Source: an uncultured Nitrospiraceae bacterium (lineage in GTDB: Bacteria; Nitrospirota; Nitrospiria; Nitrospirales; Nitrospiraceae). Taken from it: a DNA stretch of 64,000 nucleotides. Positions 18,001 to 24,000 of this stretch are shown piece after piece; the stretch's first letter is position 1, and the number at the start of each line of letters is the position of its first letter. The DNA lies in the NCBI GenBank assembly GCA_963846575.1, contig CAWJWJ010000002.1, positions 576,001 to 640,000 on the forward strand, written 5' to 3'. The position numbers were made by a program.

Positions 18001-21000
18001 GAACTCTTGATCTTCCTGACCCCGACGATCGTTCGATCGACAACTTGACAGGTCCTGGGAAGACCAGTTAATAATCGCCTCCATTGATGACAGTATGCTG
18101 TCTCGATGGGGGCGAATCCCACGGAACGTGCTTCCTCGCCGGCTTACTAGGCGCTTCTTCCGGGCTTTCCCTCTCACACAGACAGATTCACCATCATAGG
18201 TCTTCCCAGCTGAAATTAGCGTCAGGGGGGATCTACGCCTGAGGGCCCACGGTGCCCGTTTCTCCCGCACTGTGTATTGGTACACTTGCTCTCTGCTGGC
18301 ACCCATAATATCTGATAACGAAGGATGTTCTCTGGGCTTGTCTCAAAATGTCAGGCCGGATCAGGTGGGTGCACTATGAACGTTCCCCACCCCTTCCATA
18401 ACTGAAAGGATCAGCGAAAGTCTTCTGTGTCCTCTCTTATGACTCTTCCCGATACCGACAGCCTTCGCCAAACCATTCATGTCGAACTCGGAGCGCGCAG
18501 CTACGCCATCCACCTGCAACGTGATCTCTTGGGGTCGATTGGACAAGAATTGAAGCGGCTCGGGTGCTCAGGGAAAGTAGGAATCATCACCGACCGAAAT
18601 CTGGCCGGCCGCTATCTCAAGGGGGTGAGCCGGATTCTAAAAACCGCCGGATTTGCCGTCGTTCCCGTTGTGCTTGTTCCTGGAGAGCGGACGAAAACCC
18701 TGCGCTCTATTACGGCGATTATGGATGCTCTGGTAGAGGCCAAATTTGAGCGCACGTCAACGTTGCTGGCGCTGGGCGGTGGGGTGATCGGCGATCTCAC
18801 GGGATTCGCGGCAGCAATTTACCAGCGCGGTATTCCATTTGTGCAGGTGCCCACCAGCTTGGTGGCTCAGGTTGACTCCAGTGTCGGTGGGAAGACGGGT
18901 GTCGACCATCCCAAGGGAAAAAACCTGATCGGTGCCTTCAATCAGCCGCGTGCGGTATTGATCGATCCGGCGACGTTGTCGACTTTGCCGGCGCGTGAGT
19001 GGAGGGCAGGGCTGGGCGAAGTCATCAAGTATGGGGTGATTGCGGACGAGGCGTTCTTTGAGTATTTGGAACAGCATATAGAACCGATCTTGAGGTTGGA
19101 TGACGATGCTGTTGGACGAATCGTGAAACGGTCCTGCGAAATAAAAGCGCAGGTCGTATCCGAGGATGAACGTGAAACGGATCGGCGTCGCATTCTGAAT
19201 TTTGGTCACACCATCGGTCATGCCCTGGAATCCCTCTGCGGATACCGTGGATTGATTCATGGTGAAGCAGTGGCGGTCGGGATGGTATACGAGGCGGACC
19301 TGTCGAGGCATTTGGGTCTATGCGATGAAGCTCTGGTTACCCGTCTACGCGCCTTGATCCGGGCGGCCGGCCTGCCAACCTCTCTGCCCTCTGTCACGTT
19401 TAGCTCCCTCTGGCGCGCTATGCAGCAGGACAAGAAGGTATCGGCGGGAACGGTCTACTGCGTCCTGCCGGAACGAATCGGCTCCGTCCGCGTCGTTCCC
19501 CTGGAGAAAGGGAACGTCCGGGCATGGTTCGATGCCGTTCGTGCTAGTGAAGCGCCGGGTAGAAGAATCCGCCCAACCAAGCGACATTCCCGATAGGAAC
19601 CTATGGCGGCCAAGCGCACGGTCAATCAGCTGGAACAGGCGTTGCGAGAGAAAACCCGCGAGGTCGACGTTCTGCATCGCATTAGCGAGTCCATCAGCAA
19701 TACCCTCGATCTGGAGTCGGTCCTTCGGCATATCGTCGACATGGTCGTCGAGGTGACCAAAGCCGATGCCTGCCTGCTGTACTTGATCTCGGATGGGAGG
19801 GACGAACTCATCCTGAGGGCTTCGAAAAATCCCCATCCTAAATTAATCGGACGGATCACCATCGGGTTGGGCGAAGGGATCACCGGCTGGGTGGCCCGGG
19901 AGCGGACCCGTGTGGTGATTCCGAATAGCGCAAGCGATGATTCGCGATTTAAATTTTTCCATAACCTTCCAGAAGACCGCTATCAGGCGTTTGTCTCCGT
20001 GCCCATTACGACCAAGCAGGAAGTGGTCGGGGTCATCAACGTGCAGCATAAGCGGTCGCGCCGGTATCGTCCGGACGAACTGGCGTTGCTTTCGACGGTC
20101 GCCACACAGGTGGGTGGGGCTATTGAAAATGCACGTCTGTACGATCAAATGACGCGCAAGGCCCTGCAACTCGACACACTGTCGCAGGTGTCGGAAACTG
20201 TGTCCTCGAATCGATTGATCGAGGATGTGTTGCAGCTGATTGTGACGATGACGGCGCAAATGATGGGCTCAAAGATCTGTTCCATCATTTTGCTGGATCA
20301 GGCGAGCGGCGAACTTCGGATCGCCGCCACGCAAAGTTTGAGCGAGCAATACCGGCGCAAACCCAATGTGAGGATCGGTCAGAGCATCAGCGGGCGGGCG
20401 GTTCAGGATCGTCGACCGATCATCGTCCCGGATGTTACGAAAGACAGCAGCTATATGTATCCGGATATGGCAGGGAAAGAGGGACTCTGTTCGCTGCTGT
20501 GCGTGCCGATGCTGGTACGGGAGAAGGCTATCGGGGTCATTAACACCTATACGTCCAAACCACATACCTTCACGAGTGAGGACGTGAAACTCATGCAGGC
20601 CATCGCCAACCAGGCAGCCATTTCGATCGAGCATACGACTTTATTGGAGAAGTCGTTTGAGATGCAGGAGGCCTTGCAGGTCCGCAAGTTGCTCGACCGG
20701 GCTAAGGGATATTTAATGCGGGCGAAACGGTTATCCGAAGACGAGGCCTTCAAGCTGATTCAAAGGCAAAGCATGGACCTCCGAAAATCCATGCGGGAAA
20801 TCGCTGAAGCCATTCTGTTGGCGGGCGAAATCGAAGATCGCGCCGATAAAAAATAGGGCTCTCCTAGGGTGTGCGTTCTTCAGGTGCGGTTGGACGCGGC
20901 ACGACGGAGGGCGAACTCCCCCGATTGAGCTGCTGAGTGTCCAATTGACGTTTGATATCCTGCAGTTCCCTGCGTAGTTCCTCGATCTCTGCATCCTTCC

Positions 21001-24000
21001 TTCTCAGATTGTCCTGAATGGCTCGAAGGTCTGTCTCGGGTTCCACTGCTTGCGTTGGCCGCTGGACGGAAGTCGGGCGGGGAGTTTCCCCAGCGAGTCC
21101 CGTCGGCGGCGCAGGGGCGGTCGGAGCGGGCAGTCGTGCCAGTGCATCATAATCAATAATCAGAATGTCCGCCAAGTCCTCGGCAAAGCGTGGTGTAAAA
21201 GACTGGGGGCGCAAGGCTTCCGCAGGAAGAAAGAGGAGATGGCGATTGAGGAGTTGATTGGGCTGGGGAACGCGGCGATTGGGCATGCTGATCGTGTCGG
21301 GGTCATTCGCTCTTCGGCGGTACTCATGCAGAGAAATGTAGAGCGAACGGCCGTATGCGAACACGTGGCCGCTCGTGGTTTCTTTGGCTGACAATTGAAC
21401 GGGTGGTTCGGATGACCCCACTGCAGCGCCAGCTCGTTCCCGATATCCGCCGGTGCCTTCCTGGATCAAGCGAAACCCCACCCGTTGATCTGCGGCAGCC
21501 TGCCTCAGTCCGTCCACGATTGCGGGGGCGAGAAAAGCGACTTCGGACCCTGAAAAGACCGGAACGTTTGGCTGTTCCCGTGAGGTGAGGGCTCTCAGCA
21601 GCCCGGTGTCTTCGTGGATTTTAATGCCCTGTAAGCTGCGCGCGATGAGGGCCTGGTCAAGCCGGATGGGATGGGCTGCCTGAAAGTGGCGGTCAGGAAT
21701 ACGGTCGAGATAGACGGTGCCTTGCTCGGATTGCCGCACAACAAAATCGACTTGTGACCCGGTTGTGCATCCTGTGGCCCAGAGCATCCAGACCAGGGTG
21801 AAGGTGAGAGAGGGAGAGTAGCGCATGAGAGTTGGCTCCGACTTTGCCGGCGTCCGAGACCGGCGTAGTGTAGCATAGAGACCCCGTTGGAGAGCGAAGA
21901 ACTGGCCAGTCTCCTCCCTTGACAGGAACGCCGTCAAAAGCGTATACACCCCACCAGTATGCGTTCCGGATCAGGACAACGCCGTTCTGATTCTGCGTAG
22001 ACATCGATCACGCAGGGGACAATGACGTCCTTTTGGTCCAATGGTTGGACCGGAAGGGCGTTTTTTTTTGGCCTCTAGCACCTCCGGTCTGGCAGTCAAA
22101 TCGTGTGTAACCAGGAGGGCTATGAGGATGGGCGCACGAACGTCAGGAGGACTCATACTCGGCTCGGTCGTGCTTATGATCGTTGTCTCCGCAGTTCCGG
22201 TGAGCGCAGAAGACCAGAGTGCAGGAGAGTCGGCGGGAGCGGGCCGCCTGAGCCGTGAAGTGGAGACTCCCCCCGCGGTGATTTGCGGCGGCTGCGTCAC
22301 TCCCAGTTTCGCGGGCGAAGGCAAAGGAAGCATTGTTCCCTATGGTCGTATCGAGCTGGACGCGATATACAGCAACCGAAATACGAATCCACTCGACCCC
22401 GGGCAATTCAATGGCTATGCCACCGCCGCAGGCAAAAGCAGCAATGCGTCCTCCACGCTCAATCCTCGCTATAGCGTGTTCGGCCTGCGTGCCGACCGAA
22501 CGGACGGGAAACATACCTTGACTGGTGTCGTCGAAGCGGATTTCTACAGCCAAACCGACAATGCCGGCAATATCTCGCCTCGCCTGCGGTTGGCCAACGT
22601 CAAATATTCTCCCAACAATAGTCGGACGACCATCACGGCAGGCATGGACTGGACGCCGATCATGTCCTCTCATCCAAACCTGATCGATTTCTCCATCATG
22701 GGTTATAACGGGAACTTGTGGCAGCGACTCCCGCAGATTACCGTGAAGCATCAATTTACCGACAACGTGAATGGTCTGTTGACGGTCATGCGATTCGAAC
22801 GCGGATTATCGGCCATTCAGCCGCAGACGCAACGACGAACGTTTCAAGGGGCCGGCGCGGGGGCGGCGCCGGGTAGTTGCGGGACGAGCGGTTTCGGCTG
22901 TTCTGAAAACGCCTTCAACGATCCGGTACAGATGCCCTATGTGGGGACTCGATTTGCCTATACAGGCACGGGTGACCAGGCAGGCTTTATGGTCGCACTC
23001 AATGCCGCGTTTAGGCATTATCGATCGGCGCCGACGGCCGGGGGGATTCCCGCGGGCAACGATATCAATTCGTATCTCGTGGGGGCGGAACTCGCGGTGC
23101 CTTTGACCAACCGGTTGAGATTCACCGGTGAGATTGCCTACGGACAGGCGCTGGGAGTGGAGTTTTTCCGATACGGACAGGAGCGAAACCTGGGCACGGG
23201 CAAATCGATCCGGACCGTGGTCGGCTGGGGAGAGTTGGATTATGCCTTCGATCGGCAGCTCACGCTCATCGCCGGCTATGGGTTCGACAACCCGCTGAAC
23301 TCAGACCTGCGAGGCACCAGCGCCGGGCCTGACACCCAATATGTACTCAATCATCGGACCTACCTGACGGCCGTCCGGCATATTTGGGGCGATTTGTACA
23401 CGTCGTTCGAGTGGAATCACCTCATGACCGAATGGTCCACCGGGGAGCATTTTGCAGGAGACAATTTCATGCTCTCAACTTGGTACAACTTTTAGCCTGG
23501 CATGACGGCGAAAGGAGTCTCACGATGATCTCTCCGAAACCACAGAGTACAGACCAGGAGATTGCCACGAGCAAGGCCGAGGCCCTTCCGTCGCGCCGCG
23601 ATTTCCTCTGGCAGAGTTCACGAACCGCGGCCGGCATCGGGGTAGCGGCGTTGCTGGGAAACCTGGGGCATTGGGCATTGTCATATGGGGCCGATAAGGA
23701 ACCGATCAAGGTCGGGGTGTTGCACTCGCTCAGCGGTACCATGGCCATCAGTGAGGTGTCGCTGAAGGATGTCGTGTCGATGGCGGTGGAAGAGATCAAC
23801 GCGAAGGGCGGCCTGTTGGGACGACCCTTGAAGCTGGTCATCGTCGATCCGGCCTCTAATTGGGATCTCTTCGCCGAAAAAGCCAAACAATTGTTAGTGC
23901 AGGATAAGGTGGCGGTGGTGTTTGGTTGTTGGACATCGGTCAGCCGGAAGTCCGTATTGCCGGTGTTCGAGAAGAACAACGGGCTGCTCTTTTATCCGGT

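Follow-up and report, generated by a model that had tools for sequence, protein, structure and literature searches.

The 64,000-nt window analysed here, from an uncultured Nitrospiraceae bacterium, carries a gene for a GAF-GAF-ANTAR protein, followed on the same strand by porin-like, urea transport and urease genes, by nadE, by a DUF6733-amt-glnK-glnD-glnA block and by a cluster with cynS and nirA (Table 1). The regulator gene begins 6 nt beyond aroB (18427-19596), with which it is probably co-transcribed. Its product comprises two GAF domains, GAF-A (residues ~24-183) and GAF-B (~193-350), and a C-terminal ANTAR domain (PF03861, residues 354-405, 68.9 bits against a cut-off of 27.3; Pfam). 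As the initial annotation had it, this is the only ANTAR protein: a PF03861 search of all 4.2 Mb of the genome has this gene as its single match. Of 11 RNA-contact residues of EutV, taken from Walshe 2022 (PMC8934654), six are identical in the regulator (R361, K362, K368, E379, M391 and R394), two are conservatively replaced (K147 by R366, Y164 by F383) and three differ.

Table 1. Features of the regulator gene and its putative RNA targets, in window positions (R1, covariance model built from the leaders).
Feature	Position	Strand	Basis
GAF-GAF-ANTAR regulator gene, 417 aa	19603..20856	+	Pfam
urt leader promoter-like site: TTGACA, 18 nt, TATACA	21919..21948	+	read from sequence
urt attenuator: P1, linker hairpin, P2, terminator + U9	21968..22069	+	R1 match, 76 bits
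Presumed operon: porin-like gene, urtABCDE, lipoprotein gene, ureABC, ureFGD	22122..34987	+	Pfam, NCBIfam, gene gaps
nadE leader promoter-like site: TTGACA, 18 nt, TATATC after TGc	35977..36006	+	read from sequence
nadE attenuator: P1, P2, terminator + U8	36021..36116	+	R1 match, 79 bits
nadE, glutamine-dependent NAD+ synthetase	36266..38035	+	Pfam; NCBIfam NF010588, 742.5 bits vs cut-off 479
Dual hexaloop module without terminator, plus alternative helix	38053..38170	+	terminator-free scan, folds
DUF6733 protein, amt, glnK/P-II, glnD, glnA; gaps 2-82 nt	38163..44997	+	
cyn leader promoter-like site: TTGACG, 17 nt, TAGAAA after TGg	45020..45048	+	read from sequence
cyn attenuator 1: hairpins a, b, terminator + U-rich tail	45067..45163	+	R1 match, 64.8 bits
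cyn attenuator 2: hairpins c, d, terminator + U8	45165..45269	+	R1 match, 43 bits
FNT (NirC-like) transporter, cynS cyanase, 64-aa ORF, ferredoxin-nitrite-reductase-like nirA	45309..48465	+	

The urt and nadE leaders both have the layout first ascribed to them, i.e. two hairpins with hexaloops carrying A at position 1 and G at position 4 (A1/G4), the second of which (P2) overlaps a strong intrinsic terminator. Their sequences are also as reported. In the urt leader, P1 is CAGGAC[AACGCC]GUUCUG (21972-21989) and P2 is GGGGAC[AAUGAC]GUCCUU (within 22014-22033), and the 18-bp terminator found by the terminator scan (22024-22062) is followed by U9. In the nadE leader, P1 is GGGGAC[AAUGGA]GUCUCC (36021-36040) and P2 is AGGAC[AACGAC]GUCCU (36066-36081), with a terminator at 36074-36110 and then U8. 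The genes 3' of both leaders are likewise those named before, including a porin-like protein with a signal peptide and the C-terminus ...STWYNF. The promoter spacers had been given as 17 nt, but we count 18 nt from TTGACA to the -10 hexamer in both. The urt promoter is missing from the consensus scan, which demands T at position 6 of the -10 hexamer. No strong + strand terminator was found by the terminator scan inside the presumed porin-urt-ure operon.

The initial annotation held that the genome has exactly two such sites, a number that follows from its scan settings (a run of T6 and a gap of up to 60 nt). A looser repeat of the hairpin and T-run scan gave 13 matches, a terminator-free scan added a fifth module at 38053-38095, and the window in fact holds three modules beyond the original two, namely this one and a tandem pair in front of the cyn genes (45067-45269). 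The ANTAR-type modules thus number at least five; they are spread over four leader or intergenic regions, none further than 24 kb from the regulator gene. Cyn attenuator 1 consists of hairpin a (45067-45084, loop AAUGAC), hairpin b (45110-45127, AAAGGC) and a terminator (45118-45153), and attenuator 2 of hairpin c (45165-45182), hairpin d (45222-45237, AAUGGC) and a terminator (45230-45263). The loop of hairpin c, GUUGUG, is non-canonical, which counts against the ANTAR reading; A1 and G4 are found in nine of the ten hairpins of the five modules. The module 3' of nadE reads GACCGAC[AAUGAC]GUCGGUC, a 7-nt linker and CUGGC[AAUGGC]GCCAG. An alternative helix (38079-38170) is formed by the downstream half of the module's second hairpin together with the Shine-Dalgarno region (38153-38158) and start codon (AUG, 38163) of the DUF6733 gene. 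Of 25 other genomes in the genus, 17 retain the module, and the helix is seen in 18/18 single folds and in the RNAalifold consensus, with one-sided changes only at the genus level. Within the DUF6733-to-glnA block no convincing terminator was found.

In all four terminator-type units, a transcript ending after P2 folds into P1 and P2, while the full leader folds into P1 and the terminator. The latter is the minimum-energy fold of the urt leader (-51.9 kcal/mol, z -5.2, 0/200 shuffles as good) and of the nadE leader (-42.5 kcal/mol, z -2.4, 4/200 shuffles as good); the other fold z-scores obtained for leaders and modules are -7.4 and -4.35. An alignment of 37 sequences, filtered for hairpins with an A..G.. 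loop, a stem of at least 4 bp and GGAC in P2, has two-sided changes in 5/6 P1 pairs and 10/15 terminator pairs, and 92-95% of its cells are paired, against 42-54% with the partner slid. In a second alignment, of 93 matches fitted to the covariance model, 94.2% are paired, with two-sided changes in 17/21 pairs; 86 of the matches have two recognisable hexaloop hairpins, and among these A1 of the first loop is kept in 75, its G4 in 84 and A1 of the second loop in 79. Because one alignment is hairpin-filtered and the other model-fitted, the pairing of the P1 inner stem and the loop statistics are partly selected. The invariant P2 (GGAC/GUCC) provides no covariation evidence. Linkers range from 7 to 51 nt (median 23), those of the genome itself being 7, 20, 25, 25 and ~39 nt. 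Searched against its own 4.2 Mb genome, R1 gives four matches at E<=1 (among the 150 scored of ~970 first-look candidates), all of the terminator type and all in the window; cyn unit 2 was outside the training set of the model.

Protein and RNA occur together across the family. Among 121 Nitrospiraceae genomes, 106 have both, nine have neither, five have the RNA only and one has the regulator only. The nine joint absences fall in three genera and thus represent few independent events, and two of them are fragmented assemblies; seven belong to a single genus (g10), with genomes 99% complete. The three g10 genomes with a regulator have 3, 4 and 2 RNA matches, and in two without it aroB and nadE are immediate neighbours, the regulator gene, hairpins and terminator all being absent. 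The two partners are also physically linked: in five further genomes (four single-contig, one two-contig) 25/25 matches are found no further than 11-38.5 kb from the regulator gene, and in many genera the first leader is directly 3' of it. In a sister family, which has a 70-72% identical regulator orthologue, one RNA match lies 88-150 nt 3' of the gene. The first ORF downstream of 55 matches from 10 other genera encodes NadE (9), FNT (9), an NrtA-like NMT1_2 protein (9), Amt (3), a BBP2 porin (3) or P-II (1), and has no Pfam match in the remaining 21.

The proposal that the ANTAR protein acts as an antiterminator on the leaders is thus supported by the RNA signature, folds, covariation, R1 specificity, co-occurrence and linkage. 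The sole ANTAR protein, both leaders and their genes stand as first described, the promoter spacer and the number of sites do not, and the regulon (urea uptake and urease, plus nadE) was correct as far as it went and too narrow: FNT-cynS-nirA belongs to it too, as probably does amt-glnK-glnD-glnA, and across the family it is a regulon of nitrogen acquisition. We put the probability of an ANTAR-type riboregulatory system governing nitrogen acquisition at about 0.85. The regulator, presumably as a dimer, would bind the two A1/G4 hairpins that form first in the nascent leader; with P2 held closed, its 3' arm would be kept from the terminator and RNA polymerase would read on into porin-urtABCDE-ureABCFGD, into nadE and the genes behind it and, via two serial attenuators, into FNT-cynS-nirA. 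In the module at 38053, RNA free of protein would have the downstream half of its second hairpin paired to the ribosome-binding site that serves the DUF6733-amt-glnK-glnD-glnA block, and bound protein would leave this site free. Urea, cyanate, ammonium and NAD-synthesis genes of Nitrospira seem to be under the control of one regulator and a set of matching RNA switches. The proposed mechanism is the known, canonical ANTAR one; its description for nitrite-oxidising Nitrospira is new.

Nitrogen status, read as glutamine and/or 2-oxoglutarate, is the most probable input of the GAF domains, with RNA binding switched on when fixed nitrogen is scarce. The best match of GAF-B is the N-terminus of NifA (TIGR01817, E 2.8e-29; NCBIfam). 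GAF-A is closest to the N-terminal GAF of PtsP/EI-Ntr (PDB 3ci6, E 2.7e-22; NCBIfam NF008283 positions 5-163, E 5.5e-39), reported as glutamine-binding in PMC4848567. Scores far below the full-length family cut-offs mean that this likeness is at the domain level only, but the two resemblances make direct sensing of nitrogen status plausible. It is nevertheless quite possible, if on balance improbable, that the same RNA mechanism answers to another ligand, such as nitrite/nitrate, a cyclic nucleotide, NO/redox via a cofactor, or a partner such as P-II. GAF domains as a class accept many ligands; among the PDB matches here are the GAFs of cNMP phosphodiesterases and the haem sensor DevS, and NreA, a nitrate sensor, gives a weak partial match (E 1.9e-6). 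Nitrite is both an energy and a nitrogen source for Nitrospira, and a NirC-like transporter, nirA and P-II genes are part of the regulon. Against this, the best matches of both GAFs are nitrogen-status regulators, and the regulon is one of broad nitrogen scavenging rather than nitrite-specific.

That the attenuators work independently of the ANTAR protein, through another RNA-binding factor, a small-molecule riboswitch or mere damping, their common hairpins reflecting descent of duplicated leaders, we consider very unlikely. The pairing of P2 is not proven by covariation, binding of the protein to the leaders is deduced, and five genomes have the RNA motif without a detected regulator, one of them (G029) 99% complete and also negative in a PF03861 search. 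However, the other four are just 72-89% complete, no Rfam family was found to fit the leaders, joint presence and absence prevail among the 121 genomes, the partners are linked, and the loops agree with A1 and G4, the ANTAR determinants established by experiment (PMC3369931). Reversed logic, in which bound protein favours termination or occludes the ribosome-binding site, as described for mycobacterial ANTAR targets, and so represses the regulon, is highly improbable. It would agree with the translational repression of ANTAR targets described in preprint 10.1101/660928, and the 38053-38095 module would act near a ribosome-binding site. Yet P2 and terminator are mutually exclusive in 4/4 terminator units, so stabilisation of P2 can only oppose termination, and the 38053 hairpins lie ~60 nt upstream of the Shine-Dalgarno sequence, competing with the sequestering helix, not covering the site; activation is therefore predicted.

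Under the antitermination reading, a close parallel is EutV/EutW of Enterococcus faecalis (REC-ANTAR; Ramesh 2012, PMC3369931). Both systems have two A1/G4 hexaloop hairpins, of which the second overlaps an intrinsic terminator, and more than one leader per regulon, and the ANTAR domain here retains most of the RNA-contact residues. They differ in the sensor (a phosphorylated receiver and partner kinase in EutV/EutW, two GAFs on one polypeptide here), in the targets (ethanolamine use versus nitrogen uptake) and in the linkers, which are mostly 20-25 nt here, often folding into a hairpin, and 5-12 nt in E. faecalis eut. Induction by EutV fell strongly when the eutP linker was altered from its natural length to either 3 or 14 nt, and the linker lengths here count against the ANTAR reading. 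NasR (NIT-ANTAR, Klebsiella), NasT, AmiR and GnfR also have one regulator override the leader terminators of nitrogen-assimilation genes, but their sensors are NIT, receiver or pseudo-receiver domains instead of GAF-GAF. PtsP and NifA share the GAFs and the link to nitrogen status, with a phosphotransferase and a sigma-54 activator as output in place of ANTAR RNA binding; the GAF of NifA binds 2-oxoglutarate. The 38053 module recalls the actinobacterial ANTAR targets of 10.1101/660928, where terminator-less hairpins work at the ribosome-binding site. In those targets the start site is overlapped by the motif and translation is repressed on binding, whereas here the hairpins are upstream and compete with the anti-Shine-Dalgarno helix. 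The same preprint calls GAF-ANTAR architectures common and unstudied. We found in print neither cyanase or nadE as ANTAR targets nor a nitrogen island under one GAF-ANTAR protein, and both Nitrospira and NAD synthetase are absent from the published ANTAR supplementary table; the same table lists a urea transporter/urease entry in Desulfotomaculum.

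We read the GAF-GAF-ANTAR gene and the RNA elements downstream of it as an ANTAR antitermination regulon, and give this reading a probability of about 85%. The initial annotation had proposed such a system with the urea-uptake/urease (urt-ure) operon and NAD synthetase (nadE) as its targets; the system is real and coherent but larger than described there, since its count of exactly two sites leaves out tandem attenuators ahead of the cyanase (cyn) genes and a terminator-free module behind nadE. The regulator gene starts 6 nt 3' of aroB. Its ANTAR domain (residues 354-405) scores 68.9 bits against the curated PF03861 cut-off of 27.3 (72.3 bits in the genome search), and a six-frame PF03861 search of the whole 4.2 Mb returned this place only, in agreement with the earlier claim of a single ANTAR protein. 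By its named homologues the organism belongs to Nitrospira/Nitrospiraceae. Compared with the residues of EutV that contact the hexaloop (R142, K143, K147, K149, E160, Y164, R168, M172, N173, R175 and R177, as given by Walshe et al. 2022, PMC8934654), the regulator is identical at six of eleven, conservative at two (K to R, Y to F) and different at three (R168Q, N173D, R177S); M. tuberculosis 1s8n carries the same residue as the regulator at Q (R168), D (N173) and F (Y164). The protein would be expected to dimerise, by analogy with EutV and given the known behaviour of GAF domains.

Features of the putative ANTAR system and its surroundings, in window positions (loops in square brackets; P1 and P2 are the first and second hexaloop hairpins of a leader)
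Feature	Position	Strand	Description
aroB	18427-19596		
GAF-GAF-ANTAR gene	19603-20856	+	417 aa; two GAF domains, C-terminal ANTAR (PF03861)
Frame before urt leader	20864-21826	-	Lipoprotein-like N-terminus
urt P1	21972-21989	+	CAGGAC[AACGCC]GUUCUG
urt P2	within 22014-22033	+	GGGGAC[AAUGAC]GUCCUU
urt terminator	22024-22062	+	18 bp, then U9
urt-ure gene run	22122-34987		13 same-strand genes
UrtB-like permease gene	24939-26480	+	
5_ureB_sRNA match (Rfam)	30875-31167	-	Opposite ureC
Frame between ureD and nadE leader	34995-35945	-	
nadE P1		+	GGGGAC[AAUGGA]GUCUCC
nadE P2		+	AGGAC[AACGAC]GUCCU
nadE terminator	36074-36110	+	Then U8
Fifth module	38053-38095	+	nadE-DUF6733 gap; GACCGAC[AAUGAC]GUCGGUC, 7 nt, CUGGC[AAUGGC]GCCAG
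Shine-Dalgarno/AUG region of next gene	38153-38165		
cyn leader region	45020-45269	+	Precedes FNT/NirC-like transporter, cyanase and ferredoxin-nitrite-reductase-like genes
cyn unit 1		+	Hairpin a GGAGGC[AAUGAC]GCCUCU; hairpin b ACGGAC[AAAGGC]GUCCGU; 16-bp terminator
cyn unit 2		+	Hairpin c GCCGAC[GUUGUG]GUCGGC; hairpin d AGGAC[AAUGGC]GUCCU; 15-bp terminator, U8
64-aa frame	46676-46870	+	Between cynS and nirA; stop overlaps nirA start
GlnE-like adenylyltransferase gene	51521-53788	-	

The urt and nadE leaders occur in the window exactly as the initial annotation quoted them, and they share the geometry of ANTAR substrates, i.e. two hexaloop hairpins with A at loop position 1 (A1) and G at position 4 (G4), the second of which excludes a terminator (Ramesh et al. 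2012, PMC3369931). The promoter spacers, given earlier as 17 nt, are 18 nt by count (TTGACA-18-TATACA for urt, TTGACA-18-TATATC for nadE, the latter -10 hexamer being preceded by TGc). In both leaders the minimum-energy fold is P1 plus terminator (urt: -51.9 kcal/mol, z -5.2, none of 200 shuffles as good; nadE: -42.5 kcal/mol, z -2.4, 4/200 as good), and when the transcript is ended directly after P2, mimicking ongoing transcription, every unit takes the form P1-(linker)-P2. Second hairpin and intrinsic terminator are mutually exclusive in four of the five window modules, and nine of the ten hairpins have A1 and G4, the exception being hairpin c. The hairpins of the window are separated by 7, 20, 25, 25 and about 39 nt, and those across the family by 7-51 nt (median 23); in the E. 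faecalis eut leaders the linkers are 5-12 nt and induction depends on their length (PMC3369931). The urt linker folds as a hairpin that could draw P1 and P2 together.

The cyn leader, noticed through a pattern search, has a promoter-like site (TTGACG-17-TAGAAA) followed by two attenuators in series, and the whole region folds with a z of -7.4. Unit 1 lacks a T6 run, and the canonical neighbour in unit 2 lies more than 60 nt off, which is why the scan behind the initial annotation missed the region. The minimal binding unit is described as a single hexaloop (Walshe et al. 2022, PMC8934654), which would accommodate cyn unit 2, where only one loop is canonical. The 64-aa frame downstream has a sub-threshold similarity to winged-helix (MarR) proteins (E 2.8e-4, 21.2 bits against a cut-off of 24.6).

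A covariance model of P1 plus terminator (R1) was built from A2, an alignment of 37 leader units of this genome and its relatives. At E <=1, with 150 of about 970 first-look candidates scored, R1 has four matches in the genome, namely nadE, urt, cyn-1 and cyn-2 (79, 76, 64.8 and 43 bits); cyn-2 was matched though outside the training set, and the remainder of the window holds no R1 match. A genome-wide scan without the terminator (closing pair C-G, minimum stem 5, gap 3-60) yields eight pairs, of which four are window sites; three shuffled genomes yield 2, 3 and 7. Repeating the earlier scan with G-U pairs permitted gives 13 matches, mostly weak 4-bp hairpins. Single-hairpin patterns were dropped as a search motif, being far too common. 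In A2, whose rows were chosen through a hairpin filter (G076, the source of one row, is flagged unpublished), 92-95% of cells are paired, against 42-54% with the partner slid by 1-3 columns, and two-sided changes affect five of six P1 pairs and 10 of 15 terminator pairs (10-12 of 15 over both alignments). A3, 93 matches from 76 sources fitted to R1, has 94.2% of cells paired and two-sided changes in 17 of 21 pairs. P2 (GGAC/GUCC) is invariant and so says nothing on covariation, for or against. Among 86 units of relatives, the first loop has A1 in 75 and G4 in 84, and the second has A1 in 79 (G4 being demanded there by the filter). Leaders ahead of a gene for a lipoprotein of about 305 aa in two genomes (G116 and G001, loci L105/L108) carry the hexaloops GAUGAC, GAUGGC and GAGGAC, a natural variation in the recognition loop, with G replacing A at position 1 and G4 kept.

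No Rfam family reaches its gathering score on the urt, nadE and cyn leaders (best 20 bits against 38). The single Rfam match at gathering level, to 5_ureB_sRNA (76.6 bits, gathering score 40), lies outside the ANTAR system, and conservation of the urease coding sequence is its likeliest explanation, ahead of a genuine antisense RNA.

The fifth module has no terminator. Within the nadE-DUF6733 spacer its two hairpins are the conserved island, as seen in 17 of the genus's 25 other genomes. At minimum energy (-55.1 kcal/mol, z -4.35) the RNA folds with the loop and 3' arm of hairpin 2 base-paired to the Shine-Dalgarno/AUG region of the gene that follows; hairpin 2 here competes with a helix sequestering the ribosome-binding site (RBS) in place of a terminator. 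This alternative helix is seen in 18/18 single folds and in the RNAalifold consensus, where it has 8 bp and one-sided changes only; its extension differs in a compensating manner between two groups of sequences (AGAGGAUAA/UUAUUCUUU versus AGAGAGA/UCUCUCU). We put the chance that the module would act as an RBS-release switch at around evens.

The matches lie close to the regulator gene, within 24.4 kb in this genome and within 11-38.5 kb for all 25 R1 matches of another five genomes, each of a different genus (four in a single contig, one in two). The regulator gene has the first match directly 3' of it in many genera; in a sister family, whose orthologues are 70-72% identical, one match is 88-150 nt 3' of the gene and the rest are dispersed. 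The first downstream ORF was classed by Pfam for 55 matches from ten genera: nadE follows nine matches (in nine of ten genomes), FNT nine, an NrtA-like NMT1_2 protein nine, Amt three, a BBP2 porin three and P-II one, and the ORF after 21 matches has no Pfam hit, several of these having signal peptides and some perhaps being wrong, as ORFs were picked automatically. Tandem units are frequent ahead of FNT/NrtA-like and lipoprotein genes. Control of nadE is not universal, since in one genome of genus g10 (G009) nadE stands directly 3' of the regulator gene. In the window, the urt-ure run contains no strong + strand terminator, and the genes from nadE through glnA are separated by 2-115 nt with no convincing terminator; both are probably operons, in which internal promoters are possible. 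A search for sequencing runs over 35900-45400 listed none of RNA.

Minus-strand frames without a Pfam family stand at both ends of the urt-ure operon. The UrtB-like permease has N-terminal HEAT_2 and HEAT_PBS repeats (residues ~98-181) before BPD_transp_2. Where the nitrogen island ends, on its far side, the opposite strand encodes a GlnE-like adenylyltransferase that includes an ACT-like domain.

Co-occurrence was surveyed in 121 family genomes of 39 genera. The full-length protein query (E <=1e-20) matches 108 and R1 111; one protein match (G063) lies in an 877-aa frame and is to a GAF domain only, at 26% identity, hence 107 genomes are counted with an orthologue (73-97% identity). Regulator and RNA are both found in 106 genomes, the regulator without the RNA in one (G034, in 490 contigs), the RNA without the regulator in five and neither in nine; the joint absences amount to few independent events, and related genomes do not count as independent of one another. 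Three genomes flagged unpublished (G006, G053, G076) have both; without them the count is 103/118. The five RNA-only genomes are 82% (G015), 99% (G029), 89% (G063), 72% (G071) and 77% (G095) complete, and in four of them PF03861 was searched for as well, with no match. Seven of the nine double negatives are 99% complete members of g10; that genus also has three genomes with a regulator, and these hold 3, 4 and 2 RNA matches. Among its members without the regulator, two (G081 and G114, loci L162 and L163) have nadE directly 3' of aroB with no regulator gene, hairpins or terminator, the regulator gene having been lost from, or never inserted into, the place between these two genes, which border the region in the genome of the window. 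Further afield, family f13 (orthologues of 43-46% identity) has no R1 match and family f3 (62%) a single weak one (27.3 bits, E 0.039), and a hairpin-plus-terminator scan of about 2.6-8.3 kb either side of three distant orthologue genes found nothing convincing, a result that does not establish that targets are absent there.

The first GAF domain (GAF-A) best matches the Geobacter GAF protein 3e0y, the PtsP/EI-Ntr GAF 3ci6 (E 2.7e-22) and NF008283, and also 3trc (E 6.5e-17); the match to NF008283 (positions 5-163, E 5.5e-39) is a likeness at the domain level only, at 134 bits against a full-length cut-off of 583. The best family match of GAF-B is the NifA N-terminus (E 2.8e-29). The NifA GAF domain binds 2-oxoglutarate. 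Glutamine binding has been described for the EI-Ntr GAF (PMC4848567), and together with the two sets of matches this makes nitrogen status our preferred guess for what the GAF domains would sense. That the ligand would be glutamine or 2-oxoglutarate specifically is more tentative, and we rate it somewhat below an even chance; the ligand and the direction of the regulator's response are both things we infer. A search of the genome with the NtrC profile TIGR01818 reached 31 places, none over the cut-off (best 458.7 against 558.6 bits). Taken to its full extent, the reading would make this one-component protein the master nitrogen-status regulator of the Nitrospiraceae, sensing glutamine and/or 2-oxoglutarate directly through PtsP-like and NifA-like GAF domains and turning on the whole nitrogen-acquisition island (urea, cyanate, nitrite, ammonium, P-II/GlnD/GS and NAD synthetase) purely post-initiation, by single or tandem attenuators and an undescribed activating RBS-release platform; we consider this combination, as a whole, rather unlikely.

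In soils, waters and wastewater plants Nitrospira are the main nitrite oxidisers, and partly complete nitrifiers, and by using urea and cyanate they feed nitrification. In the N. moscoviensis transcriptome the genes of nitrogen transport, assimilation and regulation are described as clustered in one region and strongly expressed when nitrite is the sole source of nitrogen (PMC6606698). This kind of system is already known, control of nitrogen genes by ANTAR proteins being known in general; the lineage and the input domain are without a studied example. Our literature search for ANTAR or antitermination together with Nitrospira found nothing relevant, and preprint supplements may list more targets. 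By term search, a published ANTAR supplementary table has a urea transporter/urease entry in Desulfotomaculum and does not mention Nitrospira, NAD synthetase or cyanate; according to the accompanying paper, GAF- and PAS-ANTAR proteins were all uncharacterised when it was written. In the sections available to us, a 2025 review names GAF only as an architecture (PMC12591593). Among the papers searched, the literal term GAF-ANTAR is met in one, on NasR. Published work connects nadE with P-II signalling (PMC7196632). The regulon reading proposes a concrete, testable circuit of one protein and a handful of RNAs of ~100 nt, supplies a defined regulon for a common yet unstudied architecture and extends the ANTAR target list by nadE and cyanase, with the g10 members that have neither regulator nor leaders as a natural contrast.

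In many draft genomes of several genera (G031, G094, G102, G107, G118, G105, G111, G051, G117, G103 and G093) the regulator gene lies ~27.5-28.0 kb from a contig start, a fixed distance that suggests a conserved upstream repeat, perhaps an rRNA operon, at which assemblies are split.
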